The position numbers were made by a program, and so were the translations under genes. From a virus (lineage: Duplodnaviria; Heunggongvirae; Uroviricota; Caudoviricetes), in IMG/VR virus record IMGVR_UViG_3300005326_000042, positions 64,001 through 128,000 of that record: 64,000 bases of DNA. One strand, given 5' to 3'. Shown piece by piece: positions 509 to 58,201 of this stretch (the stretch's first letter is position 1; each line of letters opens with the position of its first letter). The notes under the pieces are model-generated. The model saw only the letters and a list, made by a program, of their open reading frames with translations, searched no databases and was not told where the DNA came from.

Positions 509-1690
509 ATGAAATCCACTTATAAATTTAGAATATATCCTTCAAAGGATCAAATTTCTAAACTAAATAACACTTTGGATACTTGTAGGTGGGTTTATAA
601 TCAAACTTTAAGTCTTAGGAAAGAATCATATGAGAAAAATCAACTGTCTCTTTCCAAGTATGATACTCATAAATATCTAACATCTTGGAAAGACGAACAC
701 CCGTTCCTAAGAGAGGTAAATGCCCAAGTCCTTCAGAATGTCCAAGAACGGGTAGATCTCGCTTTCCAAGGATTCTTCAGGCGTGTTAAAAACCATGAGA
801 ATCCTGGATACCCAAGATTCAAAGGAAAGGGTTACTACGATTCTTTTACTTATCCTCAGTATGGGTTCAAGATTTTAGAATCCAAGGAATTATACCTTTC
901 TAAGATAGGAAATGTTAAGATTAAGTACCATCGCGAGATTGAAGGAACCATAAAGAGACTTACAATTCAGCGCACTATTAGAAATAAGTGGTATACTTGT
1001 TTCTCTGTTGTAAAGGATTCTTTAAACGAGATTCAGCCTAACGGCTTGCACGGCGAAGCCGTGCTTAAGCACGATGGAATCATGCGGGCCGTTGGAATAG
1101 ATATGGGTATTAAAACTTTTGCTACTCTTTCAGACGGAAACACTATTGAGTATCCATTCTTCTTTAAAGAAGAACAAGAGAACCTTAAACGAGTGCAACA
1201 GAAACTTTCTAAAGCGAAGAAAGGTTCTAGAGAATACATCAAACATTTAAAAGTCGTTCAACGTATTCATGAGAGAACAGGTTTTAGAAGAGATAATTTT
1301 GCTCATCAAGAATCCAAAGTTTTGGTGAATAACTACGGTTTAATATGTTTTGAGGATTTAGATACTAAATCAATGCTTGAAAACGGCACTAAATCCCTAA
1401 GCAGAAACATAATGGATGCCTCTTGGAATAAGTTTCTAAGACTAACTCAGTTCAAGGCTGAAAGTGCCGGTTCTAGAGTAGTGTTAGTTGATCCTAAGAA
1501 TACATCTCAGATATGTTCCAGATGTGGTTTCAAAGTAGTTAAGGATTTAAAAGAGCGCACTCATTCCTGTCCAATGTGTGGTTTGGAAATGGATAGAGAT
1601 TTGAATGCGGCTTTGAATATTCTCAGACTGGGATTACAGTCTGTTAGCGTAGGAAGCTATAGAAGCCCCAGCCTTAATGCTGGGGAGTAG
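509..1690 (+). CDS. tnpB: IS200/IS605-family TnpB RNA-guided endonuclease
   Basis: N-terminal YKFRIYP HTH; RuvC motifs GIDMG, CFEDL, DRDLNAA intact; CSRC/CPMC zinc finger. Confidence 0.95.
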   Translation: MKSTYKFRIYPSKDQISKLNNTLDTCRWVYNQTLSLRKESYEKNQLSLSKYDTHKYLTSWKDEHPFLREVNAQVLQNVQERVDLAFQGFFRRVKNHENPGYPRFKGKGYYDSFTYPQYGFKILESKELYLSKIGNVKIKYHREIEGTIKRLTIQRTIRNKWYTCFSVVKDSLNEIQPNGLHGEAVLKHDGIMRAVGIDMGIKTFATLSDGNTIEYPFFFKEEQENLKRVQQKLSKAKKGSREYIKHLKVVQRIHERTGFRRDNFAHQESKVLVNNYGLICFEDLDTKSMLENGTKSLSRNIMDASWNKFLRLTQFKAESAGSRVVLVDPKNTSQICSRCGFKVVKDLKERTHSCPMCGLEMDRDLNAALNILRLGLQSVSVGSYRSPSLNAGE

Positions 1691-25064: not shown

Positions 25065-25793
25065 ATGGATGCTAACGAATTTTCTATTTTATATGAAGAT
25101 CTATTTGATAGTGAAAGACAAGACAACTATTCTCTGAGAGAAAACGGAAAAATCGTTTGTAGTCTCGGAGACTTAAAAAATGCTGTAAAATCTGGAGCAA
25201 CCCATAATTCCTTATTAGAAACGTTTAGATTTACAAAAGAAAGATTAAATTATTATTTATCTTTATATCAGTTATATAGTAAAGTAAAAGAGAATATTAA
25301 AAAAGAAAAGAACATAATTAAAATAAAATCTACCGTGTCTGAAGAAGACGACGTTGAAGACTTTATTGTAAATAATAGGGGTCTTGTTGTAAAGAAAGAA
25401 AAGTTTGTTGTGTCCGAAAAAGGATATGTTCAATATTACTTTTTAGATGATAATAATAAAAGAAAGATAAAATTCTCCCACAGAAAAGTTATGGAGGACC
25501 ATCTAGGTAGAGAATTAGATAAAGACGAGACCGTACATCATATTGATTTTGACAAAACAAATAATTATTTGGATAATTTATATTTGTGTTGCAGGGAAGA
25601 TCACGGAAATATAAACAAAAACATATTTGATATTTTTCGTTATTTATTTCAAGAAGAGCTTATTAGATTTGTAGACGGAATATACATTTTAGATGAATAT
25701 TTCTATGACGAAATTGACCGTTATAAATGTCAAAAGAAAGTATTTAACGACAATCTAAAATATTATGGTCAACCAAAAGGTGATATAGACTAA
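25065..25793 (+). CDS. HNH endonuclease (HNH_3-like)
   Basis: HRKVMEDHLGRELDKDETVHHIDFDKTNNYLDNLYLC. Confidence 0.85.
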   Translation: MDANEFSILYEDLFDSERQDNYSLRENGKIVCSLGDLKNAVKSGATHNSLLETFRFTKERLNYYLSLYQLYSKVKENIKKEKNIIKIKSTVSEEDDVEDFIVNNRGLVVKKEKFVVSEKGYVQYYFLDDNNKRKIKFSHRKVMEDHLGRELDKDETVHHIDFDKTNNYLDNLYLCCREDHGNINKNIFDIFRYLFQEELIRFVDGIYILDEYFYDEIDRYKCQKKVFNDNLKYYGQPKGDID

Positions 25794-26076
25794 ACCTAAT
25801 TTTTTCTAACCAAAAACAAATGACAATACACCCGCTCGGCTCACTAACCTCGCATAGCAGCCCTGTTGGGCTGCATCACTTTCATTCTTTAAAACATTTT
25901 TATATTTCTTTAAATCACGATCCTTATTCTTCAGAACATTTTCATCCCATTTTCTCCAAACCCAATTTCACCTCAGTCTCAATTTTTCTTACTAAAAATA
26001 AACGACAATACGAGTCTTCATCAGAAGGATCGCCAATAGTAAACTTTAAATAGTAATACAGATATAATACAATCTA

Positions 26077-26673
26077 ATGGCTTGTGGCTCGTATACGAAT
26101 TCCTGTGCAACTTCAGGATATTACTCAGATTCGGTGGCTCCTTTTATATATCAAAACAGCGGCTGCTATGGTTACACAGGATCTTCCGAATGTGGGCCAT
26201 ATTACGTAGACCACTCTGGCTGTTATGTTAATGTGATTTTTTCCAACTGGCCCGATTTTGACGATACTCACACCGATTGGTGCAATGATCACACCCATTA
26301 TGTTTGGCAAGATAATTGTTGGGATCACACCCACACTCTGTGGGACGAATGGCCCGATTGTGATGGCTGTCATGAAGACGTTGGAGGAAGTTGTGATCCG
26401 CCTTGGGCAGATGCTTGGGATAATCACGAGTGTTCTTGGGGCAATTTCTGCGACTATGATGGCGGGTACAAATATGGTTGCAATATTTTCACAAACTTCG
26501 GAGATGCATATGAATACACCGACGCTGGATGGTGTGACGGCTACTCTAATGGAAATTATAGCTACATTGACGCAAGTTGGTGCGATGATTATACAGACAC
26601 CAATTTAGGCTGGAACGACTTTTATAATGTGCCGTTCAACAACTTTTGCAATCATAACGATACTTATAATTGA
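26077..26673 (+). CDS. Cys/Trp/Tyr/Asp-rich repeat protein; putative radical SAM substrate
   Basis: 30 [WYFH]-x-[DN] triplets in 198 aa, ~16 Cys, one Lys, no Arg; first gene after a TATA promoter; directly upstream of the rSAM gene. Confidence 0.75.
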   Translation: MACGSYTNSCATSGYYSDSVAPFIYQNSGCYGYTGSSECGPYYVDHSGCYVNVIFSNWPDFDDTHTDWCNDHTHYVWQDNCWDHTHTLWDEWPDCDGCHEDVGGSCDPPWADAWDNHECSWGNFCDYDGGYKYGCNIFTNFGDAYEYTDAGWCDGYSNGNYSYIDASWCDDYTDTNLGWNDFYNVPFNNFCNHNDTYN

Positions 26674-26682
26674 GGAAACGAC

Positions 26683-28011
26683 ATGGTAACAGTACTTTTT
26701 TATCCTATAGCAGACAAATGTGTAAACAATTGTGCCTACTGTTTTGAAGACGAAAACCACCGCAAAACAAAGATATATGATAGTTACAATAAATATGCAA
26801 TGGCACAAAAACACTCTGAGATTGTAGAATATCATAAATCTATTAATGAACATACTCGGACAATTCTTCACGGAGGAGAGGTGCTATCTCTCCCGATTGA
26901 AGATTTTGAATTCTTCTTGGTTGAAATGAAGAAGAGCCAATTGAATCCTTCAATTCAAACGAGTCTTGGGGTTCCTTTTACTCCTGAACATATACGTTTA
27001 ATAAAAAAATATAGCGTTAACATCGGGGTATCTGTAGATGGTCCGAGAGAATTAAATACGCTCCGTGGTCCAAGAGACCCAATTTTGAACAAGAAATTTC
27101 AAGATACAGTATATAATAATTTGAATCTCTTAAGCAAAGAAGGTATTAGTAAGGGATGTATAACTATTTTAACCAAACAAAATGCTACTGGAGAAAACTT
27201 GGACAAAATGATCCAATGGCATATAGATAACAGAATTGGCGGAAGATTTAATCCCATGTTTTCCCCTTGGTATGATAGTAATCCGGAGATAAAAGAACAA
27301 GAACTTTCTCCAGAGGAACTTACTATTGCATACTTAAAACTTTTTGAGGCAACTTTAAAAACCCCAGGATTTGAATTTGCCCTTGCCTCCGATATGAGAA
27401 AATTTTTGTTAGGCAACTTCAATGTAGTGTGCGTCCTTGGAGGGTGCGACTACCTTTATACCACCTGCCAAACTATAATGCCTGATGGCGAGGTTTCCAG
27501 ATGCGATAGATGTTTCCAGGACGGCTACTATTATACTTCAAAAACCAAGAACTTCGACGCGAGAAAAGTTGCGCTCTCTCAAACAGAATGCAGTCATTGC
27601 AGGTATTTCCCATTTTGCGGAGGTAGTTGTCCTGCTGAGGGAGCGAACGGAGATTTTAGATCAAAAACCCGATTTTGTCAAGCTATGTATTCTCTCTTTG
27701 AGGCCGTGGAGAAGTCATTAAGAGCTTCGTTTAAGAACATAATATTGGCCACAGATATTATAGATTATCCGAAAGATTATCTTTCTAAACGGAAGAGATT
27801 TAATCCATTTAGATTCGAGAATTATCAACAGCTTGATGACGACATAAAATTAAAACCGTATCATCCCCTGTCAAAAGAACAGCAACAGAAAGAAAAAGGG
27901 AACTGCGGGTGTAATAAGAAAAAAGATGATTCTGGTCTTCAAAAAGAAAACACGAATAATCAAGAAAAGTTTATGCACGCAGACTATCCGAATTCAGGCT
28001 TGAGGCACTAA
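26683..28011 (+). CDS. Radical SAM/SPASM-domain maturase
   Basis: CVNNCAYC (CxxxCxxC), HGGE, SVDGP motifs; SPASM Cys pattern C..GGC...C...DGEVSRC / CxxCxxxxxCxGxCP...C. Confidence 0.93.
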   Translation: MVTVLFYPIADKCVNNCAYCFEDENHRKTKIYDSYNKYAMAQKHSEIVEYHKSINEHTRTILHGGEVLSLPIEDFEFFLVEMKKSQLNPSIQTSLGVPFTPEHIRLIKKYSVNIGVSVDGPRELNTLRGPRDPILNKKFQDTVYNNLNLLSKEGISKGCITILTKQNATGENLDKMIQWHIDNRIGGRFNPMFSPWYDSNPEIKEQELSPEELTIAYLKLFEATLKTPGFEFALASDMRKFLLGNFNVVCVLGGCDYLYTTCQTIMPDGEVSRCDRCFQDGYYYTSKTKNFDARKVALSQTECSHCRYFPFCGGSCPAEGANGDFRSKTRFCQAMYSLFEAVEKSLRASFKNIILATDIIDYPKDYLSKRKRFNPFRFENYQQLDDDIKLKPYHPLSKEQQQKEKGNCGCNKKKDDSGLQKENTNNQEKFMHADYPNSGLRH

Positions 28012-28013
28012 CC

Positions 28014-28826
28014 ATGATAAACGAACCAAAACCTTATACTACGATTCTTCCAAAATGTGGACATTCTTATTTTTATAACCTATCTGAGGCAGCATTAAAA
28101 TTGAGTTTTGATGTCGAAATGAAGTCTATTCAGGAAGATATCCGCGCGGCAAACGTCTTTTATCTTACGCCAGACTACTACGATTTTCAACTAGAGCAAA
28201 TTCTTGATCTTGGCCTCGTTTTCTTCCCCCTTTCCAGAGTGGAAAATTACACAGGATTTACTCACAAACAAACACCTGTTGCAAACTTAGACAAAAATTC
28301 TATGTCTTTTGGGGTTGTAGCCAAGGATTTGAAAACTGCAAAAGAGTTTAAAGAATATTATATAAAAACAGATCATACGGGTATGGGTAAGATCCTCGGA
28401 TACCCAGATTGTTGTATTCAAGCCTTTAATCAGTATACAAAAAAATACCCAGATCCAGTATATGAAATCGCGCGGAATACCCCACATACTATAGAGAATG
28501 GGGTTATCGTTTTAGAAGATATTTCTTATCAACTCCAAATTCATCATAGATATTTTGGGTTCAAAATAATCCCCTGGTTCCCTTGCAGCTATATTTGTGA
28601 CGCTTCGTTAGAAGCGTGTGAGGTTTGGTTAGATTTAATGAGGAAAATAGATTCTGAGACTACAGAGAAAATAATATCTGTTCTTACTATGCCCTCAACT
28701 TGGAGTCTCTTTAATTCTCAAGTTGTTGTAAACAAACCGCCACATAAGAAGAGTGTGTATGTCGGTTATTCTACTAGCTACTATGATCCGATAAAACAAG
28801 ACGTTGAATTTAGGAGCTTGGTTTGA
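28014..28826 (+). CDS. Conserved protein with LGYPxCC motif (DUF483-like)
   Basis: GKILGYPDCCIQAF and PWFPCSYIC motifs. Confidence 0.55.
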   Translation: MINEPKPYTTILPKCGHSYFYNLSEAALKLSFDVEMKSIQEDIRAANVFYLTPDYYDFQLEQILDLGLVFFPLSRVENYTGFTHKQTPVANLDKNSMSFGVVAKDLKTAKEFKEYYIKTDHTGMGKILGYPDCCIQAFNQYTKKYPDPVYEIARNTPHTIENGVIVLEDISYQLQIHHRYFGFKIIPWFPCSYICDASLEACEVWLDLMRKIDSETTEKIISVLTMPSTWSLFNSQVVVNKPPHKKSVYVGYSTSYYDPIKQDVEFRSLV

Positions 28827-29713
28827 TGTTTAAGAACCTAATGTTTTATCGGGATTATAATAAGCACGATGTAGAAACTGACGGGAGTTTGTTAACCGCC
28901 ATATTTACAATCAAAAATGCTATTTCTGGAGGATATTTCTTTGTCGAATCTATCCTTTCGGCCATCCCTTTTGTAGATCGTCTTTTTCTGAACGACGGTG
29001 GTTCTGATGACGGAACGAGAGAATACTTAAAAAGAATTCAAGAAATGTTCCCAGATAAAATTGTTTTATACCAAATTCCAGATAGAGTTGGAAACAACTG
29101 GTTCTCGATCGATAATGGCTTAAACAGGATGATTAAAGATGTAAAAAGTGAGTGGATCTTCGAAATCCAGGGTGATGAGATTCTAGATCCAATTAACTTT
29201 AAACTAGCTTTGAAAGAGTTGAAGAAAAGCGAGAATTTTAACTCCCTTCGTCACAATCGCTTAGATTTAACTTGGTTTGACAAAGAGCCTCATTATACTA
29301 TGAGAACCGTGCGTTTTGTAAGAAATGTACCGAATCTTACTTCATATTATGGGGGAGACAATTTTCATATAGGTTTTATGGGAAAACCCTCAGAGAACTT
29401 TACTTTACATAATACTCCCCCTGAGAGGCAGGTATTTAATGTTAACTTAAAACATTATTTAGTTCCTTTTGAATTAAATAATATTGAAAAAATTCGAAGA
29501 CATGCCGAGGAACTTGCTCCTAATGCTTCAGACAGGAAAGAAATATACCAAAGAGAGCGAATACCCGACACAAAAAGAGATTACAGTCGAGAAATCTGCG
29601 ATCATGTTCCTCAAATTCTTAGAGGTATTTCTAAAGAGAAAAAGTATTTTGTAAGAGAAGAGCTATTTGACAAGTTGTGGTTATCCAATGTTGGTGGTCT
29701 AAATGGTCTGTAA
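28823..29713 (+). CDS. Glycosyltransferase family 2 (GT-A)
   Basis: LFLNDGGSDDGTREYL and WIFEIQGDE motifs. Confidence 0.85.
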   Translation: MMFKNLMFYRDYNKHDVETDGSLLTAIFTIKNAISGGYFFVESILSAIPFVDRLFLNDGGSDDGTREYLKRIQEMFPDKIVLYQIPDRVGNNWFSIDNGLNRMIKDVKSEWIFEIQGDEILDPINFKLALKELKKSENFNSLRHNRLDLTWFDKEPHYTMRTVRFVRNVPNLTSYYGGDNFHIGFMGKPSENFTLHNTPPERQVFNVNLKHYLVPFELNNIEKIRRHAEELAPNASDRKEIYQRERIPDTKRDYSREICDHVPQILRGISKEKKYFVREELFDKLWLSNVGGLNGL

Positions 29714-29915
29714 AAAGAATAAACTTGAAGTTGTTAAGTCCGAAATAAAGAACATGGAGATGAACATCTATCGTGTTGGTCTCCAGGCTAAAATAAATGA
29801 AATGCTCGGAAAAGGAACTGAAGCTTTACTAAAAGAAATTGATGGTTTTGAAAAAGCTTTGGTTTTTCTTAAAGAGGAGGAAGAGAGGGTTACGGCGGAG
29901 GAAGATACGAAGTAG
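29703..29915 (+). CDS. Small coiled-coil protein
   Basis: GGTGGT RBS; overlap with the GT gene. Confidence 0.55.
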   Translation: MVCKKNKLEVVKSEIKNMEMNIYRVGLQAKINEMLGKGTEALLKEIDGFEKALVFLKEEEERVTAEEDTK

Positions 29916-30014: not shown

Positions 30015-30797
30015 GTGAGCTATATGACTGCGAACTGGAAAAACAACAGAGATCGGTTAGAAAAACCGACTTTTGAATCCAAGACAACTACGCTTAATAC
30101 TTATGCAAACGTAGCTGTTACTTCTGCGGATAGTGTAACATTTTGGAATACCGAAGGACTTCATACCAAAGTACTTCGATTTACTGCGACTACCAATAAT
30201 TTGCTTGTAAAAATATTGGGTTCTCTGGATAGTGCGGGAACATTTCCCGACACCGTGGAAGCTGAGTTTGCAGTAAACGTTGGAACCCCAGTTCGAAAAA
30301 CCATAGCTAATTATTATGATGCTTTAAGGGTTCAGGTAAAACCTGCGGCCGATAATGTACATGGGACTCTGGCAGTCCAGGCTAGAGGGTCTACGGGTAC
30401 TGATCCGACTGATACGGAGATAACGGTTGGAGACGTTGATGCCAACTTGCAGGTTGGAGATGTTGATGTAGGGGCCGCGAATCCTGTGCCGGTTTCTATG
30501 TCTGCAAGTATGGCAACTACAATCGCTGTAGAGAATGTTACACTTACAGTTGTCGATACCGAATACAGTTATACAATCCCAAATAACTGTAAATCTATTG
30601 AATTCTGGTCTAGAAATGGATATCCAGTTAGATTTGAATTTACAACTGGACATGTAGCTACTCCAACTGGAGATTACCTAACACTTAAATCAAACAACAC
30701 TTATGCAAGTCCACCGTCTCTCAATCTGTCTTCCAAGACAGTTTACTTCGCCTCTGACAACGCTGGCGACATCGTGGAAATTTTGGCTTGGAGCTGA
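30015..30797 (+). CDS. Putative virion structural/fibre-adaptor protein
   Basis: Beta-rich, Thr/Val-rich; VGDVDANLQVGDVDVGAANPVPV linker typical of phage fibre proteins; follows the late motif. Confidence 0.55.
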   Translation: MSYMTANWKNNRDRLEKPTFESKTTTLNTYANVAVTSADSVTFWNTEGLHTKVLRFTATTNNLLVKILGSLDSAGTFPDTVEAEFAVNVGTPVRKTIANYYDALRVQVKPAADNVHGTLAVQARGSTGTDPTDTEITVGDVDANLQVGDVDVGAANPVPVSMSASMATTIAVENVTLTVVDTEYSYTIPNNCKSIEFWSRNGYPVRFEFTTGHVATPTGDYLTLKSNNTYASPPSLNLSSKTVYFASDNAGDIVEILAWS

Positions 30798-30801
30798 GAA
30801 A

Positions 30802-32400
30802 ATGCCACAGAAATTAGATAAGGCTCCAAAGGGCGCATACGATGCCATAGTCTTCATCGAAGGTAGCCAGGTCGTGGCGGAGGATGCGGATGGGAGGAAG
30901 ATAGCTAGTGGAGTGGCTGGGACGGACGATACCACCGTATTTCAGGCTGCTGCAAATAATTATGCCGGGGTGATTGATGTCGGATCAAACGGTCTTATCT
31001 TAAATGATACCATACAACTTCAGGACGGGCATATCATAAATGGCAATGGCCGCAACATCGATGTGCAAGGACTTAATAGTGTGTTATTCAATTTTGTCGG
31101 AACCAGGAAAGACACTACTTCTCGTATCGCCGGTGTTCGCGATGTTCGTGCTCTTGGCCTTGTCAGCAATACGGGGTGCATTTTTTCGCAATTCAATGAC
31201 ATGGATTATTGCCAGCCAATCGTCGAAAATATTTATCTTCAGCGCGTTGCCAGTGGCGTATGGCTAACAGGAGATTGTTATAACTCTATAATCAGAGATC
31301 TTTATTGGCTCGGTATCGGTCCAGATGGCATAGGCGTGAAACTCACCAGAGGCGGTGGCTATTCACACAATACCACGATTGACCATTTTGTCGCTGGACA
31401 AAATTGGATAACTACGCTTGGAGGATATCCACTTTATCCGATTTGGATCGACAATGATCAGTCGTCCATTAATATGAATAATATTTGGATCGAGGGAATT
31501 TTTCAGCATGGTATACACACTGGAAGTCTATCCTCAATCATGGTGTTAGATTCTGTTGTGAATATCGGTCGTCCTACTCCAACTGATTACGTCGTGAACG
31601 AACTAGATGGCGTCAGTCGAGCCACATTCAGCAACGTTACAATGGTCGTCGGTGGCACTCGGATTACGGGTGCGTGTGGTAGAATTGATTTCCACCACTG
31701 CAATAACTGGACTATGTATGCTAACTATGGTGGATACCTCCTCGACATCCAAGCAAATGCAACAATAGAGAAATTGTCTATAGATCATTGTGAAATTGTT
31801 ACTCAGCTTGCATGGCCTACACTCAATTTTGCATCTGGAACTAATGTAAAATCATTTAACTTCAGTGATAACACGGTTTCAGGCAAGACCACCGGAACCG
31901 ATAAAGGTAGATTCTTGTTAACCGATGCAACTTCGGTTATTGGTTATTTCGATATGCATGATAATATATTCCGTGACATTGTGCTAACTCCTAATACGTA
32001 TTGGCTCCGATTGCAAAACACCGCTGGCAATCTCGATGGCCGAATTCATTCCAACACATTCAGAAACATTTCTGTTCCTGGGCCACTCCCGTTGATATCA
32101 ATTGTAGGCGGGTTGGAAGTATATAATAATAAAATATCTGGGTGTACCGGCACTATTACACTTGGATTGTGTAACGTTCATAACAACGATGGTCATCTCA
32201 CTGAATCCTCCGGTTCCTCCACAGGCACAGACTCCGAGCAAACCATCGCCCACGGTCTAGCCGCAATCCCAACCGGCTGCAAAGCATGGATCAAGTATCT
32301 TGTAGGCGCGAGATACGTCACCGAGATGATACCCTTTGATGCAACCAACGTGTATCCGACAGTTGCATCAGGGGTTGCTTATGAATGGAGGATAGAATAA
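30802..32400 (+). CDS. Tailspike-like right-handed beta-helix (pectate-lyase-like) receptor-binding protein
   Basis: Start likely ATG 30802; GTDDTTVFQAA N-terminus, repeated N/I-x-x-N beta-helix turns, C-terminal TIAHGL domain. Confidence 0.75.
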   Translation: MPQKLDKAPKGAYDAIVFIEGSQVVAEDADGRKIASGVAGTDDTTVFQAAANNYAGVIDVGSNGLILNDTIQLQDGHIINGNGRNIDVQGLNSVLFNFVGTRKDTTSRIAGVRDVRALGLVSNTGCIFSQFNDMDYCQPIVENIYLQRVASGVWLTGDCYNSIIRDLYWLGIGPDGIGVKLTRGGGYSHNTTIDHFVAGQNWITTLGGYPLYPIWIDNDQSSINMNNIWIEGIFQHGIHTGSLSSIMVLDSVVNIGRPTPTDYVVNELDGVSRATFSNVTMVVGGTRITGACGRIDFHHCNNWTMYANYGGYLLDIQANATIEKLSIDHCEIVTQLAWPTLNFASGTNVKSFNFSDNTVSGKTTGTDKGRFLLTDATSVIGYFDMHDNIFRDIVLTPNTYWLRLQNTAGNLDGRIHSNTFRNISVPGPLPLISIVGGLEVYNNKISGCTGTITLGLCNVHNNDGHLTESSGSSTGTDSEQTIAHGLAAIPTGCKAWIKYLVGARYVTEMIPFDATNVYPTVASGVAYEWRIE

Positions 32401-47380: not shown

Positions 47381-50300
47381 TTGATGCCTGCCCAAAATTT
47401 CCAGACTTTCTTTTTGTTCGAGGCGCGGGGCCTCCAACAAGTCCAAGCACAATTCCGAGCTACTGCTAACGCTATTCGTAACGAAGCTCGACAGTTGGGT
47501 CAAATTAATTTTGCGGCAGGGGCAAGTCAACAACTCGCGGTTTTACGAAATTTGGATAACACTGTTACCATGCTTGCGGCTCACACAGGGGCGCTTGGAT
47601 CATCCTTTCAGCGAACCAACGCTTCCCTAAACCAAACTGCCACCGCAGCTACCAGAACTGCAACTTCCACGAGGCAAGTGAATACTGAGTTTTTAAAAAT
47701 GGGAACCCTAGCTGGAACCGCAGGGATGGCAATTAGTAGAACTGTTTCTACTTTAAGTACGCTTGGAACCGCTGGGAAAACTGGATTCAGAAGCATAATT
47801 ACTGGAGCCGAAGCCGCAGTTGGAGCCGTAAATATGCTTACTGCCTCCCTCGGAAGAGCTGCTTCTATGGCAGGTCGTATGGCAATGGTTATGTCCGCCC
47901 CTGCTATGGGCATGAAAGGAGCAGCCCTTTGGGCTTCGCCGCTTGCAGCAGGCGCTTTAGCAACTTATGCTCGCCCCGGAGATATAGCAGCTATTGGCGC
48001 AGGATATGGTATTTACAAATATTCCCAGTGGGATAAACTTTCGGATGTTGCCGCAGCAAAACAAGGTTGGCGCACGAACCAATATTATCCTCAATATGGA
48101 ATGACGGGTGCTCAACTCCAAAAATATACGTCAGAAAAGGGAATTGACGAAGCTAAAACCCTATCTCTTCGGCAAGATGTTTACGCTACAACAAGCGAAA
48201 TTTTGAAGATGAGAGCTGAGTACAGCGCAATGGGCGGAGATATAGTATCCACAAATAGCGAAATAATGAAGTCATTTCTTGACTATTCTGCTGCTACAGG
48301 TACTGAAGCAGAAACCGGAATGGCTACGATATATTCCCAAGCGTTAACATTTTTTGGTAAAAAAGGTACTACTGGCGCTGAAGCTCAACAAAATTTCCAA
48401 AAAACAACAGATCTGTTAGTAAATCTCGTTAACCAAACTAGAATGAGTGGAGAAGACGTTGAAACCTCCCTCCGTCAATCTGCTGCTGTTCTAGCAAGTA
48501 TGGGCATGACTCAGGAACAAACTTATGCCTCTGTCGGTACTCTTAGAAATTTAGGAAGAACTCCATCTCAAGCTGGCGGAGATCTCCGAAGGTTGGCGCT
48601 TCGTTTTACTCCAAATTGGACTGAGCTTCAACAAGAAGAGGCTAAAGAACTTGGAGAATGGGTTGATGCAGAAGGAGAACAAAAGAGACTTAGTGCGACT
48701 AATGATATTTTAGATAAGATAGGAATGTCTTGGTCTGATATTAAAGTTGGGGCTAAAGATTCTCAAGGAAATATAAATGGAGTTCTCGAAAACGTTTTAA
48801 AGTTAGAAAAAGCAATGGATCGGGCGGGCTTTACAGATCTTCAGAAAGCTTCGGCTAGAGAACAAATTGGCGGGGTTTATGCCTCCACCGCTTGGGAAAT
48901 GCTTGCTAAAAATCCAGATCTTTATGCCGAGCTTTACGCGGGTCAGTTAAATTCTGTTGGTGAGGCTGCTGAAACCGTTCAGGTTGCGAATGATAATCTT
49001 GGCGGCTCTTTCCAAAATCTAAAAGATGCCGTTGAAGCCTCTGCGGGAAGTTTGGGAGAACACTTAGAACCAGGACTCAGAAGAACCTTTGACTTTATCT
49101 CTGGAAAAGCTATTCCTACCATGAATAAGTTAGGTGGTGCTCTCTCTCAAGGTAATTTCTTCACCGCAGGCTCCCTCTTCTTCGCCTCAATGGGCTCCCT
49201 AAAAGACATAGCTACTGATAAACTAACAAATCTGTTTACAACCTTAACTGATGGTGAAGCATGGGGCGAAATTGGAAACGTCCTCCAGACAGGCATCATA
49301 AAAGGCGTAGATTCTCTAGAGGAATTCAGCCAAGGTTTTAATTCTATAATGTCTGGCGAAGGACTTGGAGCAACTGCTGGTGGAGCCCTTGGCTGGATTC
49401 AAGATACAATAGATGCTATAGATTTTAACCAATTATCCAACATAAAAGACAATATCCTCGAAGGTCTCCAAAATGGAATCAACCGTGGTATAGATTGGAT
49501 GAAGAACCAAGATTGGGGCCAAATATATAATAATTTATATCAATCTATTTTGGGTGGCTTAGAACAGATTGGAAGCTTTATCCAAAACTTAGACTGGGAT
49601 GGAATCTTCCAAACCATGAAGAGTGTTATGGAAGGGATAGACTGGTCTACTCTTGGTCAAAGATTGGGGGAAGATTTAAGTGTTGCAGCAGATTGGATTT
49701 TAGAGAGAGCAAAACAGCTTCCGTGGAGCGAAGTTGTTTCTGCTGCGGGCAACGCATTAAGTAGGATTATAATAAATATTGATTGGCTCCCCATAATTAC
49801 AAAAGCCGCTCAAGTCGGAATAGATATCGGTATTCTTATATACGAAGGCGTAGCTCAATCCGATCTCGGTACAATCTTCTACAACTGGGCCGCAGACCTT
49901 GTTAATGCGTTTGTAGGAGCTGTAAATACCGTTTCTATGATGATAGCAACCATCCCGATGGCTCTGGGATCAATTCCAAGTATATTGTCAAACGCAGCTA
50001 CGGATGCGATGGGTTTAGAAGGGAGCAATAAAGAGATTGTAAACAAAGCAATTGAAGAGTTTATTACTCCTCATGCTCCCCGAAATCCTCTTGCGCTTCC
50101 TCTTCCAAACCAACAGACAGAAACCGAAGGAGAACCAATCACTCTTGGAGGCATGGTTGCAAACGCTCCCGCGCGATGGAATACGGGAAAAGAATCTTTT
50201 AACGAATTGAAGGCAGATTCTCCTTGGGGAAAAATCTTATCTTCTTGGGGAGATTTACTAGAAGAGGGGAAAGAGACATTTCTACAAATAAGAGATGGTG

Positions 50301-53200
50301 AACAAGTAGAATATGAAGGCGGATCGGAGAGCGTTAGTGAGAGTGGTGCTCTATGGCCGAATGTGGGATACGAAAAAATTATTCCAGATTTAACAAAGGC
50401 AACTTGGGATGCCGCTGTCAAAGATTATGTCTCGATGTCTCCCGAACCAGAAGATGTAAGAATGGGATATTTTGATTCTGATTTTTCAGCTTTAAAAGAT
50501 TTTGGAACATTCTTAAGAGAAGATTTGACAGATCGGAAACAATATGTGGAAGGACAGCAACAATGTCTACAATATTCTGAACAGGTTATAAGAGGATACA
50601 AAAAACACGCGCAGCAAACCGAGTCTACGGTTGATGACATTTGGGCAAGTCAAATGAAGCTTGCTTATTTTCCACCAATGGAAGAAGGAGAACTTGGACA
50701 TTTTGGTGTCGCCGTTTCTCCATCTGGAAAGTGGACGGAAGCGAGTACTTATCTTTATGACGTTACAGAGACCGATAAGTACTTGGGCAGACCTGAAGAT
50801 TGGTCTGGTCCAGAAGGGTATGATCCAGGTCTTATAAAAATATTTGATGAATATGAACACAAACAGGGTTCTGCAACAGATGTAATATCATATCCAGAAG
50901 ATGCGTTTTTGTTTAAAGAAAACCCAGATCTCTTTCCAATAACTGCTGAGTTAGCCCCAGCGACTTTGGTTAGAGGTGGAGGCCCAATCGGAGACATTGC
51001 TCGTAGAGCGGGTGGATCTACAGGTGGTTATGATGTCAGCGAGATCGAAAGAAGTTCAACACCTGAAGGATCGGATTCTGTTTTTGGGAAAGCTGTTAAT
51101 TCTTTTGTTGAGAACAGTAAAGATTCGTCCAAAGACAACAAAGAATCGTCTAAAAATATTAAAGATGCGTCCAAAAACTTTGTAGATTCTTCCTCTGATA
51201 TTAGAGAATTTGTAAAAACTTCTGAACAAGGTACTACGGTTCGCCTTACTGGTCCAAATGGGGAAGACCTTACATCTTCTTTAGGATTATCACAAGTTGA
51301 AGGCGTTTATAACGAATTAACCCGTAAAGGAAAAGTAGTTTCTGGTATTAGATCGGATTCTGAGTTGGGGAATTCCATCGGTTCTAATACAAAAGCCGTA
51401 AATGGTTTAGAAAAAACTATCCAGAACCAAACCTCAGTCACTCAAGAACAAAACGAAATTATAGGATCTCCAGATTACCCATATTCCTACTCTCACCTTC
51501 CAGAAGAGTTAAGAAGTCTTGTTTCTGATCAGGATTATTCTGGTATATCAGAGCTTATGTCAGATCATCCTTATTACGTAAGCAAACCCCCAGAATTTTG
51601 GGCAGGTGTTGATGAATACGATAAAAATACAATAAATGATCTGGCTCAAATTTTGTATGCTGGAACGCGACTCACCGGAATGGAAAAGAAAGAATTAAGA
51701 TCGATAGATTCCAGACCCGGAATAAACGACCCTCTTATTGCAGAATATGCTAAAGGCGCAGATATAAATAAAAAATATTTGGAAGGCTTGGATCAAATTT
51801 ATTGGAACATATATGATGCCGGGCAGTCTCAAACTCTAACTCAAAAAGAGGCCAATGGATACTTAGAAGAAATAGGTGGTATCCTTAACGGAATAGACTG
51901 GACTATGGAGCAGGATATAAACGAAAGATCCAAAATCTTAATGCAAAACGAAGAGGGAAGGTTTAAGGAATTAATTCCTTATCTAAAAGCTCTTGAAAAT
52001 ATTGCGACTAATACAGATCCCAACAACCCCAATAATCCTCTAAACCAAGCTAATGGCGGTCCAGCTTCAGACGCCGCTCAACAAGCAATACTTGAATCTC
52101 AACAAAAAGCGCAAGATTTCGTAGAGTCCCAATTATATTCAACAATATGTGATATTGAAGGTTTCTTTACACCAGAAAAAAGTCTTCCGATGGGAACACT
52201 GAGTCATCCTCTTCTGAATGCCGCTGGTGCAGGATCACTAATTAATGTAAACGGAAACTGGTACACTCGCGAAGAATATAAAGAAATGACAGGAACTACT
52301 CCTGGATTAACAGATATAGCCATGAGAATGAAAGGTGGCCCGTTTGATACTCCAGGAATTGCGAGAATAGGAAGCTTTACGGGACATACCGATTCAACGG
52401 TTCAAGAGGATATTACTGAGGGTTTTAAAGAGGGCGGGGTTTTTGATGATGAATCGTTGGGAGACCTCGCAAGATATTGGGCGGGAGAAGTTGAGAACAT
52501 AAGATCGGGCAAATCTCCTCGTTTTACATATCCACATGCTGCCAAAGAAAATGTAGAAGATTTGAGTTTCCTTGGCCCAGAAGGAGAAGCGTTAGAAAGA
52601 GAAGTTCTTGCGATTGTAAAGTTTGAAGCTGACACTTCTGTAATAGATGACGTTAAATCAAGTTTATCCGAAGGTGCAGAATTCAACGTCAACGTCCAAG
52701 CCCCGAACGCAGACGCAGTTGCAGGATTGTTAGGTTCTCTCGGTGGTGGGGCCTCTTATACCGTTGTTGTGGACGTAATAATGTCGGGCGGGATGGGAAT
52801 GAGTGAAGGGTATTTCGGAGATATAAATTTTGCTTCGGGGTCCGGCCTAACCGCTAATGTTGGTGGAAACTTCTTCGATTATGGCGGTATTCAGAGTGTT
52901 GGAGGACTTGGATTTTTTGGTGGATTTGGAAACGCTCCGCAATTTGCAGAAGGCGGATATACCGGAGATTATGAAGGCCAAGCCTATGTTCACCCCCATG
53001 AATATATTTTCAATCAAGATCAAATGGGTGTAGTAAGAGAAATGGTTGGCGCGGCAAGTGGTTCGGGCGGGAACACCTACAACGTTTATGTAAGTGTTGA
53101 CAATTCCGGTTCTCTAAACACCCAAAACTCAGTAGACGCCTTTTCCACAAAAATAGCTCGCGCCGTGAAAGCCGAACTTCAAGACGAGATGATGAACTAA
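47381..53200 (+). CDS. Tape measure protein
   Basis: 1939 aa, Ala/Gly-rich helical; tape-measure core; W-containing 11/22-aa repeats; C-terminal FAEGG...VHPHE motif. Confidence 0.9.
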   Translation: MMPAQNFQTFFLFEARGLQQVQAQFRATANAIRNEARQLGQINFAAGASQQLAVLRNLDNTVTMLAAHTGALGSSFQRTNASLNQTATAATRTATSTRQVNTEFLKMGTLAGTAGMAISRTVSTLSTLGTAGKTGFRSIITGAEAAVGAVNMLTASLGRAASMAGRMAMVMSAPAMGMKGAALWASPLAAGALATYARPGDIAAIGAGYGIYKYSQWDKLSDVAAAKQGWRTNQYYPQYGMTGAQLQKYTSEKGIDEAKTLSLRQDVYATTSEILKMRAEYSAMGGDIVSTNSEIMKSFLDYSAATGTEAETGMATIYSQALTFFGKKGTTGAEAQQNFQKTTDLLVNLVNQTRMSGEDVETSLRQSAAVLASMGMTQEQTYASVGTLRNLGRTPSQAGGDLRRLALRFTPNWTELQQEEAKELGEWVDAEGEQKRLSATNDILDKIGMSWSDIKVGAKDSQGNINGVLENVLKLEKAMDRAGFTDLQKASAREQIGGVYASTAWEMLAKNPDLYAELYAGQLNSVGEAAETVQVANDNLGGSFQNLKDAVEASAGSLGEHLEPGLRRTFDFISGKAIPTMNKLGGALSQGNFFTAGSLFFASMGSLKDIATDKLTNLFTTLTDGEAWGEIGNVLQTGIIKGVDSLEEFSQGFNSIMSGEGLGATAGGALGWIQDTIDAIDFNQLSNIKDNILEGLQNGINRGIDWMKNQDWGQIYNNLYQSILGGLEQIGSFIQNLDWDGIFQTMKSVMEGIDWSTLGQRLGEDLSVAADWILERAKQLPWSEVVSAAGNALSRIIINIDWLPIITKAAQVGIDIGILIYEGVAQSDLGTIFYNWAADLVNAFVGAVNTVSMMIATIPMALGSIPSILSNAATDAMGLEGSNKEIVNKAIEEFITPHAPRNPLALPLPNQQTETEGEPITLGGMVANAPARWNTGKESFNELKADSPWGKILSSWGDLLEEGKETFLQIRDGEQVEYEGGSESVSESGALWPNVGYEKIIPDLTKATWDAAVKDYVSMSPEPEDVRMGYFDSDFSALKDFGTFLREDLTDRKQYVEGQQQCLQYSEQVIRGYKKHAQQTESTVDDIWASQMKLAYFPPMEEGELGHFGVAVSPSGKWTEASTYLYDVTETDKYLGRPEDWSGPEGYDPGLIKIFDEYEHKQGSATDVISYPEDAFLFKENPDLFPITAELAPATLVRGGGPIGDIARRAGGSTGGYDVSEIERSSTPEGSDSVFGKAVNSFVENSKDSSKDNKESSKNIKDASKNFVDSSSDIREFVKTSEQGTTVRLTGPNGEDLTSSLGLSQVEGVYNELTRKGKVVSGIRSDSELGNSIGSNTKAVNGLEKTIQNQTSVTQEQNEIIGSPDYPYSYSHLPEELRSLVSDQDYSGISELMSDHPYYVSKPPEFWAGVDEYDKNTINDLAQILYAGTRLTGMEKKELRSIDSRPGINDPLIAEYAKGADINKKYLEGLDQIYWNIYDAGQSQTLTQKEANGYLEEIGGILNGIDWTMEQDINERSKILMQNEEGRFKELIPYLKALENIATNTDPNNPNNPLNQANGGPASDAAQQAILESQQKAQDFVESQLYSTICDIEGFFTPEKSLPMGTLSHPLLNAAGAGSLINVNGNWYTREEYKEMTGTTPGLTDIAMRMKGGPFDTPGIARIGSFTGHTDSTVQEDITEGFKEGGVFDDESLGDLARYWAGEVENIRSGKSPRFTYPHAAKENVEDLSFLGPEGEALEREVLAIVKFEADTSVIDDVKSSLSEGAEFNVNVQAPNADAVAGLLGSLGGGASYTVVVDVIMSGGMGMSEGYFGDINFASGSGLTANVGGNFFDYGGIQSVGGLGFFGGFGNAPQFAEGGYTGDYEGQAYVHPHEYIFNQDQMGVVREMVGAASGSGGNTYNVYVSVDNSGSLNTQNSVDAFSTKIARAVKAELQDEMMN

Positions 53201-56264: not shown

Positions 56265-57388
56265 CGGCTAACGATTGGTATTTAAATTCCCTTCAACTTG
56301 ATCCTTCAAGTGACATCTATATTACAGAAGCCATAGGATTTAAATCCTCATCCAAATCTGATTCAACTACTTCTTGGTCTGGAACAGATATATCCATCCG
56401 AAATATCCAACCACAACCAATAAAAGTTAGTCTCAAGGGGTTTGCAACTACTCGTACTGGATGGTCAAATTTAATGCAGTACGATTCATCAAATTATAAT
56501 TGGAATACTGATGTAGATAATGTTTACTTAATAGAAGATCTATCTAGAAGATGGAAAGTTCGAAAAATGAGTGTGTCGCCAACTTTTGATAGAAATGTTC
56601 TTCCTTTTGATATAGACCTTGAACTTGATAAAATTTCTCCAGAAGGCTATGTAGAAAATCAAGCTACAGGGACAGTTACAACTTCTCCTACAAATATAAC
56701 ATCTCTTGTAAACGCAGGCGATAAAGATACAAATTTCAAATCTATTGCAATTACAGGAGCTTATGCTTCAGGGGCTAATCTTGCTTATCCAATTTTAACT
56801 CAGGCTTCAGTAGGATATGACCTTTTAGTTGCAAATGTTCTTTTAGATACCGCTACTTTTACTTTCTATGATGATCTTACGGCAAAGCACTATTATTTGG
56901 ATACTTTAACGAGTGGTACAAAGAATACAAGAAACTGTAATTCTTCTACAAACGTGACTTTCAGTACAGATAGATTACAAATTGCAGCTTCTGGAGAACT
57001 GAAGTATAAACTTGATCTCGCCCATCCTCTAATGCAAGATCCAATTTTAACTTTAAGTATAGAAAATTTGGTTTCTGATCCTATATTACAGGTTTCACCA
57101 GATGACACTAATTGGTGGGACGTAGAAAAAACTCTTGTAGGTGGGAATCAGATTGATTACAATTTAACAAAATTGGCTGGATATTCTACTTTCTATTGGA
57201 GAATAGTAACTGATTCTGGAGATTCTTTGGATATTACAAGAATCGAATTAGAATCCTGGCATAACTACTCTGGTCAGGGGAATATTCCTTATCTGAGGAA
57301 AAATAGTGTTTCTGAAACACTTGCAGCTACAATGTCTGCTGGAAACTTGACTTATGATATTAGATATAGGAACAAATACAACATATGA
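56261..57388 (+). CDS. Distal-tail (Dit)-like protein with an inserted beta-sandwich
   Basis: Size, composition and tail-module position. Confidence 0.55.
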   Translation: MTANDWYLNSLQLDPSSDIYITEAIGFKSSSKSDSTTSWSGTDISIRNIQPQPIKVSLKGFATTRTGWSNLMQYDSSNYNWNTDVDNVYLIEDLSRRWKVRKMSVSPTFDRNVLPFDIDLELDKISPEGYVENQATGTVTTSPTNITSLVNAGDKDTNFKSIAITGAYASGANLAYPILTQASVGYDLLVANVLLDTATFTFYDDLTAKHYYLDTLTSGTKNTRNCNSSTNVTFSTDRLQIAASGELKYKLDLAHPLMQDPILTLSIENLVSDPILQVSPDDTNWWDVEKTLVGGNQIDYNLTKLAGYSTFYWRIVTDSGDSLDITRIELESWHNYSGQGNIPYLRKNSVSETLAATMSAGNLTYDIRYRNKYNI

Positions 57389-57472
57389 ATAGAAAACTTT
57401 TTATATTTAAAGAGATATTATTTAAATATTATTTATTACTGAGAACTTTAATGTAGTGAAAGGTGGTTCAAA

Positions 57473-58201
57473 ATGCCTATTGTTGTTGCAGACCTCATAT
57501 ACTATCTTACAAAATCAACCGCATCGGCCGATGGTGAAGCTGGCGGAAATGGACTTGGAGGTTATAGATCCTCGGATGCTATAACTACGAACACAGATAA
57601 TAATCTCTTCGACGATATTACAGGTGCAGAAAGCGCATCTGGGGATGCCGAATATCGCGCTATGATGATTAAAAATACTCATGCTTCTTTAACTCTTGGT
57701 AGTCCTAAAGTTTGGATGGATTCCAATTCACCTCAAACGGCCTTAACGGTAGAACTTGCTGCTGGCGGCTCTGAAGTATCAGTAACTGTTTCTTCTACTA
57801 CAGGATTTCCTGCATCTGGAGCTATTTTTGTTGAGGATGAGGAAATTACATATACTTCAACAGATGCTACCAACTTCTTGGGAGCTTCAAGAGGAGCAAA
57901 TGGAACAACTAAGGCGCTCCATTCTGTTGGTGCTAAAGCAGAACACAATCAATTAAGAATTGCTATAGAAGATCCTTCAAACAATTCAACTGGATATATT
58001 CAAACTATTGCGGATGAATCCACTGCCCCAACGGGTCTTTCTTGGACTGCAAACTACACTTATGCAACTGGATTATCCGTTCAAGATCTTGCTGCGGGGG
58101 AGTTTTATGGAATCTGGCTTAGAAGAAAAATTCCTGCTGGATGTAATGCGAAGACGGGAATTTATGTAACGCCTCGTATACGTGGAGAAACTGCGGAGTA
58201 G
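57473..58201 (+). CDS. Virion structural protein with an inserted fibre domain
   Basis: NNLFDD.TG.ES..G..EYR motif; insert V.STTGFP..G.I.VEDE.I.YT...RG..GT. Confidence 0.6.
   Translation: MPIVVADLIYYLTKSTASADGEAGGNGLGGYRSSDAITTNTDNNLFDDITGAESASGDAEYRAMMIKNTHASLTLGSPKVWMDSNSPQTALTVELAAGGSEVSVTVSSTTGFPASGAIFVEDEEITYTSTDATNFLGASRGANGTTKALHSVGAKAEHNQLRIAIEDPSNNSTGYIQTIADESTAPTGLSWTANYTYATGLSVQDLAAGEFYGIWLRRKIPAGCNAKTGIYVTPRIRGETAE

Follow-up and report, generated by a model that had tools for sequence, protein, structure and literature searches.

A viral operon that joins a radical SAM/SPASM enzyme and a DUF483-type partner to a candidate substrate built of aromatic-x-Asp/Asn triplets

Why would a virus encode a radical S-adenosylmethionine (rSAM) enzyme directly behind a protein filled with aromatic-x-Asp/Asn triplets, and what might the one do to the other? 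The question is raised by a 64,000-nucleotide (nt) stretch of DNA from a virus of the Caudoviricetes (positions 64,001 to 128,000 of IMG/VR record IMGVR_UViG_3300005326_000042), which we call the window and whose coordinates are used below unless the virus genome record is named. An earlier note on this DNA had proposed that the enzyme installs dozens of three-residue cyclophane (or thioether) crosslinks on its neighbor. We found that 26077-29713 is one operon of four genes behind an archaeal-type TATA box, the last two of which that note had overlooked. Its elements are as follows.

26046-26053, plus strand: archaeal-type TATA box TTTAAATA, 24 nt 5′ of the substrate ATG
26077-26673, plus strand: substrate candidate, an acidic protein of 198 amino acids (aa) (from open reading frame translation, triplet count and family alignment)
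26683-28011, plus strand: rSAM/SPASM enzyme, 442 aa (from Pfam, TIGR04085, invariant columns and tree)
28014-28826, plus strand: DUF483-type partner protein, 270 aa (from its PF04467 match, synteny, fusions and complex model)
28823-29713, plus strand: glycosyltransferase family 2 (GT2)-like protein, 296 aa (from its NDGGSDDGT motif; the gene overlaps the stop codon of the partner)

The triplet protein and its family

The product of 26077-26673 contains 30 [W/Y/F/H]-x-[D/N] triplets between residues 6 and 195, back-to-back in places (for example FSN-WPD-FDD), along with 16 Cys, a single Lys and no Arg, all of which agrees with the counts of the earlier note. In 5000 shuffled versions of the protein the mean count was 12.0 ± 2.66 and the highest 23, so that 30 was never reached (z ~6.8-6.9). 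When the distance from the aromatic residue to Asp or Asn was varied, offsets of 1, 3, 4 and 5 were at or below expectation and +2 alone was enriched; the triplet signal is therefore one of spacing and not of composition. Within the 147.8-kb virus genome this is the sole strongly triplet-dense product (z 6.9, with the runner-up at 3.6).

A word-index protein search with the 198-aa protein returned the query alone, and HMMER, run exhaustively against 1.84 billion proteins, yielded just two partial relatives. Ten relatives were recovered by translating the DNA upstream of homologues of the rSAM enzyme, where the open reading frame (ORF) ends just before the rSAM gene and is uncalled or mis-framed in the contigs concerned. 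The family is seen only by translation of upstream DNA because gene callers miss or mis-frame the ORF. Pfam, NCBIfam, PHROGs and PADLOC held no family for this protein or for the related His-x-Asp precursors described below.

Members of the family share an N-terminus of about 60 residues, itself made of triplets (MxCGxYSNHCNxxGYYxDY...YQNxxCY...EC...Y.VDN..CYxNV), and a C-terminus, PFxNFCNHxDTY, of which the window's own version is PFNNFCNHNDTY. The middle region is irregular and cannot be aligned, yet each protein carries 25-38 triplets. Comparison of codons between relatives gave 302 differences at third positions versus 167 at first and 140 at second positions. Changes are thus about twice as frequent at third positions as at either of the others, which places the frame under purifying selection. 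We conclude that 26077-26673 is a real, conserved gene. The alignment indicates that the triplets themselves are kept in the conserved termini and that triplet density is kept in the variable middle. The earlier note had held that triplet spacing not conserved among homologues would speak against its proposal; +2 was the only enriched offset in 11 of 11 family members (z 5.2-9.9).

Cysteine is the second marked feature of these proteins, with 16-24 residues per protein, six of them conserved across the family. A sub-branch (loci L011-L017; L numbers denote related loci) has only the six conserved Cys, yet 32-38 triplets. Cys is the middle residue of 31 of the 338 triplets in the family; in the window's protein it is often found at the triplet center (WCD, WCN, FCD, FCN), and apart from this no offset from Cys to Asp or Asn is prominent there. 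In L001, L002, L004 and L006 the pattern [D/N]-x-Cys is enriched (z 2.6-6.1), and aromatic-x-N-x-C pentads occur, e.g. FGNTC, WGGNFC. When modeled with AlphaFold2 and the family alignment, the 198-aa protein had a mean predicted local distance difference test (pLDDT) score of 35 and appeared unstructured. Such predicted disorder would suit a processive peptide-modifying enzyme.

The enzyme, its DUF483-type partner and their clade

The CxxxCxxC motif of the enzyme consists of C13, C17 and C20, all three of which are invariant in 25 homologues. The protein matches Pfam Radical_SAM at 41.9 bits (cut-off 29.5) and the SPASM model TIGR04085 at 27.1 bits (cut-off 27), and its SPASM region has ten conserved Cys (C250, C255, C262, C274, C277, C303, C306, C312, C316 and C332), as expected for two auxiliary [4Fe-4S] clusters. 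Beyond about residue 365 follows a poorly conserved tail rich in Lys, Glu and Gln. As the cluster motif begins at residue 13, an N-terminal recognition element for peptides made on the ribosome and modified after translation (RiPPs), or RRE, is absent. By these features the enzyme has every part of an rSAM/SPASM protein but lacks an RRE, in line with the earlier note on both the position of the motif and the absence of the RRE.

The enzyme reached the cut-off (300-450) of no curated NCBIfam enzyme family, and its rSAM relatives likewise stayed below the NCBIfam cut-offs. The best scores were those of DynA (NF041298; 69 bits), YhhB (67.5), the anaerobic sulfatase maturase anSME (57.7), TIGR04083 (57.5) and AmcB (54.8). 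The named models of three-residue cyclophane-forming enzymes, against which the earlier note had suggested a search, all scored below their cut-offs: TIGR04496 (XyeB) at 28.7 of 450 bits, TIGR04261 (GrrM/OscB) at 41.5 of 310 and TIGR04269 (FxsB) at 35.3 of 370. The same was true of NF041707 (YhhB, cut-off 445) and NF041718 (AmcB, cut-off 425). Among ranthipeptide and sactipeptide maturase models, the PapB model NF047865 gave 34.8 of 340 bits and TIGR04463 was not among the enzyme's matches. In the Protein Data Bank (PDB), a profile of the enzyme family matched anSME at 66.4 bits (residues 4-347) and, at 64.5 bits, ChlB (PDB 9GM3), a triceptide synthase. These similarities place the enzyme among the SPASM enzymes that modify peptides or proteins but do not name its reaction. 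Matches of the enzyme to PADLOC pVip models were weak, reflected similarity in the core only, and were set aside.

About 35 relatives of the enzyme were found at 42-55% identity. When viral contigs and prokaryotic genomes, one for each species, were scanned, 27 viral and 80 cellular loci were found, and a maximum-likelihood tree was built from 97 distinct rSAM proteins. The tree splits, at a support of 99 in the Shimodaira-Hasegawa-like approximate likelihood ratio test (SH-aLRT), into a clade of 47 members, mostly anSME-like and from Bacteroidota, and a clade of 50 that includes the window's enzyme, which lies in a group of 13 made up of viral sequences alone (support 100). The earlier note had named grouping with sulfatase maturases as a result that would count against it; with its position outside the anSME-like clade and 57.7 of 349 bits against TIGR03942, the enzyme is not assigned to the anaerobic sulfatase maturases.

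The two clades differ sharply in their neighboring genes. A DUF483-type gene lies directly 3′ of the rSAM gene at 44 of the 50 loci in the window's clade versus none of the 47 outside it, and a triplet-rich ORF (triplet enrichment z>=4) was found at 37 of 50 loci versus 0 of 47. The coupling of repeat ORF and adjoining rSAM/SPASM enzyme on which the earlier note was built is thus borne out by the wider search that it had suggested, and the pairing of substrate and enzyme recurs at every related viral locus having upstream DNA. Loci within the clade are related to one another, so that these counts do not represent independent events. Nevertheless, the association of enzyme, partner and triplet ORF holds across several deep branches of the tree, and the enzyme-partner pair and the triplet-rich ORF co-vary across viruses and at least six bacterial phyla.

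The triplet proteins of this wider clade are diverse in size and residue choice. Viral candidate substrates range from 186 to 795 aa and have up to 130 H-x-D/N triplets (the 795-aa protein of L030), while the bacterial loci encode His-x-Asp precursors of 80-200 aa in Acidobacteriota, Bacillota, Chloroflexota, Actinomycetota and others. Upstream of an rSAM 46% identical to that of the window, an ORF of about 1000 aa (L009:966-3956) carries 149 aromatic-x-D/N triplets (z about 20). This type of ORF was seen in the IMG/VR contigs L009 and L023, and it has an internal copy of the FCNH motif, like the end of the substrate family, as if several substrate units had been fused. A viral branch at 30% identity (L018, L020-L022, L026, L030, L032, L033 and L115, the last being Thermus phage Cumys_13) encodes His-x-Asp repeat proteins with two to three N-terminal copies of a motif of about 30 residues, GSxW[IV]EGxxLxY[IV]DxxGxxR, for which Pfam and NCBIfam have no family and which may be a fiber-attachment or enzyme-docking domain. 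Next to a more distant rSAM in an Acidobacteriota metagenome-assembled genome, L086:3516-3896 encodes a Gly/Trp-rich peptide with WGNGG/WRNGG units that has the appearance of a GrrA/GrrM-type triceptide locus.

The partner gene begins 2 nt past the rSAM stop codon. Its product scored 24.4 bits against PF04467 alone and 25.3 with its frame neighbors, and E 5.5e-128 against a hidden Markov model of itself and five relatives; this profile was taken from the first iteration only, as a second drew in rSAM-DUF483 fusions. The family is marked by the motifs LGYPxCC and PCSxxC, which together contain four Cys, at positions 133, 134, 191 and 195 of the window's protein. AlphaFold2 modeled the partner with confidence (pLDDT 94.9, predicted template modeling score 0.90). 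A Foldseek search of the PDB with this model returned nothing at E<=0.001, and among Swiss-Prot models only the uncharacterized AF_0426 was matched. Fold candidates from a VIA wide search, 2guk (Z 7.2, 104 residues) and NleE (Z 5.0), were within the range of chance arrangements and were rejected.

A complex model and natural fusions point to binding between partner and enzyme. A model of the complex of rSAM residues 1-365 with the partner had an interface score (ipSAE) of 0.82, as compared to 0.01 for the best control; runs agreed in at least 86% of contacts, and partner pLDDT was at least 87. Of the solved complexes, 58 of 80 attained this mark, as did 2 of 110 mismatched pairs; these counts are approximate here as our own alignments were used. 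In the modeled interface the SPASM region of the enzyme (258-302, 324-327) meets the N-terminal strand and C-terminal sheet of the partner, at its residues 2-18 and 233-257. The prediction cannot recall a solved DUF483 fold because none exists. The model thus supports binding of enzyme and partner. Natural fusions agree with it independently: rSAM and DUF483 form a single reading frame in bacteria at L039, L042, L044, L046 and L047, and in AlphaFold DB clusters the DUF483 fold is the C-terminal domain of radical SAM proteins of 600-1070 aa.

What the enzyme pair may do to the triplet protein

The 198-aa protein is very probably the substrate of the enzyme. The scheme that we infer for this relation, for the bond type, the partner's role, glycosylation and the use of the product is the following. 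The rSAM enzyme and the DUF483 protein would pair up, the latter docked on the SPASM domain, as a heterodimer that works along the unstructured protein and acts at many of its 30 triplets. At each, a C-C bond would be formed from the aromatic ring of Trp, Tyr, Phe or His to the beta-carbon of the Asp or Asn at +2, giving a three-residue cyclophane and a loss of 2 Da per ring. The partner may stand in for the missing RRE, handle electrons via its four conserved Cys, or both; a Zn or Fe-S cluster on these Cys, and substrate recognition or electron transfer by the partner, are conjectures on our part. The GT2-like transferase might then add sugar. The product would remain protein-sized, heavily cross-linked, very acidic and protease-resistant, and would most likely be used outside the cell, in the virion or on the host surface. 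The earlier note had likewise thought of a virion element or effector, and this part is a guess.

Cyclophanes are favored because the triplet is the unit of triceptide chemistry and because published enzymes cover the residue types seen. Bonds from Trp to the C-beta of Asn, Asp or Arg and from Phe to Asn are made by XncB and OscB, from Tyr to Asp by YxdB, and from His to Ala, Arg or Lys by HaaB, YhhB and HtkB (PMC11002830, PMC11499958). On the evidence of the sequences, we lean toward the view that the rSAM-DUF483 pair forms three-residue cyclophanes on the triplet protein. The fuller picture, in which a two-protein machine of an archaeal virus places some 30 cyclophanes on all four aromatic residues, followed by glycosylation, to make a hyper-cross-linked protein of the virion or host surface, is more tentative and in our judgment falls a little short of an even chance.

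Several observations weigh against cyclophane formation on the whole protein or against a virion role. The enzyme lies far under the curated cut-offs, including those of DynA, XyeB and GrrM/OscB (69/450, 28.7/450 and 41.5/310 bits), and since the anSME and ChlB scores are nearly equal, sequence similarity would not by itself select cyclophane formation. At 13 of the 50 clade loci there is no triplet-rich ORF at z>=4. Known triceptide clusters are without a DUF483 partner, and their precursors are short and have a leader. The window's subfamily is rich in Cys, with [DN]-x-C enriched in some relatives (z up to 6.1), so that thioether or metal chemistry may occur as well or instead. Finally, the tail module is about 20 kb from the cassette, unlike in the Thermus phages, and a virion role is suggested solely by a beta-helix gene.

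Alternatively, the same pair may act on the same substrate to make thioether bridges of the ranthionine or sactionine type, from Cys to Asp/Asn or to other carbons. PapB and QhpD form thioethers on Cys...Asp/Glu motifs, and the abundance of Cys in the substrate (16, six of them family-conserved), the Cys-centered triplets and the enrichment of [DN]-x-C in four relatives would all fit such chemistry, as would the PapB-family matches, which reach 80.8 bits, the top match, in the L040 relative. A protein-sized substrate for rSAM thioether formation is also known in methanogens: in Methanococcus voltae the rSAM/SPASM enzyme CrpC crosslinks CrpA, a large repeat-rich, Cys-rich protein, and the helper CrpB raises the extent of modification (PMC13692751). 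However, most substrates in the clade are without Cys, and enzymes of the same clade stand beside substrates in which Cys occurs at most once while His-x-Asp/Asn triplets number up to 130 (L018, L022, L030, L033 and Thermus phage Cumys); Cys is therefore not the shared target. The L011-L017 proteins, with their six Cys and 32-38 triplets, and the lack of a standout Cys-to-D/N offset in the window's protein, other than Cys at the triplet center, point in the same direction, and CrpC is a TIGR04463 enzyme with an RRE, whereas the window's enzyme shows neither trait. We therefore regard thioethers as unlikely, although of the alternatives this one survives best.

Another possibility is that the 198-aa protein is a multi-core RiPP precursor that is modified and then cut into small diffusible cyclophane effectors, such as antimicrobials or signals that lysis would release. 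Several repeated cores are possible in triceptide and other RiPP precursors (PMC11499958), and the back-to-back triplets look like tandem cores. Nevertheless, neither the cassette nor its syntenic counterparts L001, L002, L004 and L006 contain a protease or exporter gene, and the irregular middle of the family has no regular repeat units or cleavage-like spacers. In other viruses the repeats form the C-terminal part of proteins of 300-1000 aa with folded N-terminal domains, encoded near baseplate and fiber genes, which argues for an intact product. We consider such processing improbable.

Least probable is that the triplet protein is a metal-binding or structural acidic protein while the rSAM-DUF483 pair modifies a single site, such as the C-terminal FCNH, or nucleic acid: His/Asp/Cys-rich repeats could bind metal, the conserved termini could be the sole functional sites, and a preprint on Thermus phages proposes an unknown DNA modification on the ground that cyanobacterial homologues are found close to deazapurine genes (10.1101/2024.08.14.607894), but the nearest named SPASM relatives of the enzyme all act on peptides or proteins, the triplet-rich ORF is the only neighbor whose presence follows that of the enzyme-partner pair in viruses and six or more bacterial phyla, and a triplet number held by selection while the sequence drifts is hard to square with a single-site role.

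If, as we favor, the pair forms cyclophanes, the consequences would be considerable. To our knowledge, the only substrates on which radical SAM enzymes are known to form cyclophanes are short bacterial peptides, with one to few rings. The more than 50 related viral and bacterial loci described here encode whole proteins filled with triplets (30-149) and tied to DUF483, a family without known function or solved fold. Viruses would then hard-wire their own proteins post-translationally with C-C bonds, an enzymatic cross-linking that would be without precedent for a viral protein; DUF483 would acquire its first function, and protein engineers would gain an enzyme pair for stapling long leaderless sequences. 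The cultured Thermus phages Cumys, phiMa and phiLo share the module, so that the system is directly testable.

Genomic setting, host and comparison with known systems

The intergenic gaps of the operon are, in order, 9, 2 and -4 nt. The first, reported in the earlier note, separates the substrate stop codon from the rSAM ATG at 26683, and a GAGG overlaps that stop codon. The placement of the TATA box before the substrate gene, which that note had also remarked on, recurs in eight related loci (L001, L002, L004, L006, L011, L012, L016 and L017), where CTTTA[AT]ATA stands at the same distance from the ATG while the flanks diverge. This layout would imply a leaderless or near-leaderless mRNA. Genome-wide, the TATA motif is found at about -32 on just a few ORFs and is by itself weak evidence; a scan for sigma-70 promoters found sites no more frequently than in shuffles. 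The GT2-like product scores 22.4 bits against Pfam Glycos_transf_2, just below the cut-off of 23.3, and its only PDB match is weak (the flagellin O-GlcNAc transferase GmaR, E 0.024). Downstream of DUF483, such a GT2-like gene recurs at 17 related viral loci (E 1e-42 to 1e-101).

Further features in the window and in the virus genome record are listed here.

509-1690, plus strand: TnpB/Cas12f-like IS605 OrfB protein (Cas12f1-like TNB, OrfB_IS605 and HTH_OrfB_IS605 domains)
25065-25793, plus strand: HNH_3 endonuclease, directly 5′ of the cassette
29703-29915, plus strand: small Glu/Lys-rich ORF, 70 aa, overlapping the end of the GT gene; operon membership uncertain
30703-32400, plus strand: right-handed beta-helix, tailspike/depolymerase-like protein, 1 kb 3′ of the cassette; start probably near 30802
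56403-57509 of the virus genome record, minus strand: second radical SAM/SPASM gene, 368 aa, outside the window and unrelated to the cassette
137715-141740 of the virus genome record, minus strand: fusion of uracil-DNA glycosylase (UDG) and DnaE-type Pol III alpha, 1341 aa

The HNH_3 gene is probably a mobile homing-type element; homologues also lie 5′ of the cassette in L002 and L006. In L001, L004 and L006 the GT-like gene is followed by called ORFs of 45-68 aa, none of which matches the 70-aa ORF at E 1e-4. The beta-helix protein has a structural match to NosD/Beta_helix/pectate-lyase-like clusters (template modeling score 0.68 over 403 residues) and no Pfam match, and the tape measure gene lies at 47381-53200. 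The second radical SAM/SPASM gene has no DUF483 neighbor, and its best NCBIfam match is TIGR04133 at 51 bits.

The virus genome record comprises 147,773 bp with direct terminal repeats. Its DnaE-UDG fusion has its nearest isolate relative in Methanobacterium virus PhiF1, in which it aligns with two separately annotated pieces, and the nearest relatives of its primase-helicase are in viruses of Methanosarcinales and Methanoculleus. Capsid and portal-region proteins had no match in the phage collection. One sequencing run, probably of the source sample and labeled groundwater metagenome, covers the full DNA; no RNA run is listed. The TATA/leaderless layout, the methanogen-virus relatives, the anaerobic ribonucleotide reductase encoded by the virus and the groundwater label make an archaeon, perhaps a methanogen, the likely host. 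The assignment to an archaeal virus in the earlier note is thus probably correct.

Among known systems, those of the triceptides (XncB/XyeB, OscB/GrrM, MscB/FxsB, YxdB, HaaB, YhhB, HtkB and ChlB; PMC11002830, PMC11499958) are alike in placing an rSAM/SPASM enzyme beside an aromatic-X-X substrate, and there are precedents in them for Trp, Phe, Tyr and His as donors and for Asn and Asp as +2 acceptors. The window's cassette differs in its whole, leaderless 198-aa substrate (with relatives of up to about 1000 aa and 30-149 motifs), its DUF483 partner, its GT2-like gene and its viral origin. The dynobactin maturase DynA, the top NCBIfam match of the enzyme, belongs to a system with a short leader-core precursor, a single W-x-N and no DUF483 partner. 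DynA forms a C-C link from Trp to the C-beta of Asn that spans three residues. The closest solved full-length structure by profile is that of anSME (TIGR03942, PDB 4K36-4K39), which shares the three-cluster SPASM architecture and the absence of an RRE; however, the cassette has no sulfatase neighbor or C/S-x-P/A-x-R motif, and both the DUF483 partner and triplet ORFs are absent from anSME-like loci. In the CrpA/CrpC system, apart from the differences in enzyme family and RRE mentioned above, C-x-x-Q/D motifs lie in a regular 17-residue repeat, the bonds are S-C and the genes are cellular (PMC13692751).

The nearest described system is in the Thermus phages Cumys, phiMa and phiLo, in which a three-gene "rSAM module" was named, fusions were noted and DNA modification was guessed; the available part of that account does not mention triplet repeats (10.1101/2024.08.14.607894). 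The module has the same order of repeat protein, rSAM and DUF483, and its rSAM is 27-28% identical to ours and in the same clade. In Cumys_13 (344 aa), three N-terminal WIEG-type repeats are followed by about 61 His-x-Asp-type triplets, and the gene directly follows baseplate and tail-collar-fiber genes. The phage module differs from the window's cassette in its His-only, Cys-free substrate with a folded N-terminal repeat domain, its bacterial host and the absence of a GT-like gene. The earlier note knew of no described system of this kind in an archaeal virus. This stands insofar as we found no account of viral triceptide-like proteins in the literature, while the cassette itself turns out to be one branch of a wider viral and bacterial His-x-Asp system. 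It is a distinct, virus-only branch, probably of the rSAM/SPASM side-chain cross-linking kind, outside the curated triceptide-synthase families, and is set apart by a small candidate substrate that stands alone and draws on all four aromatic residues, by six conserved and many variable Cys, by conserved termini, by a GT2-like gene and by an archaeal-type promoter.

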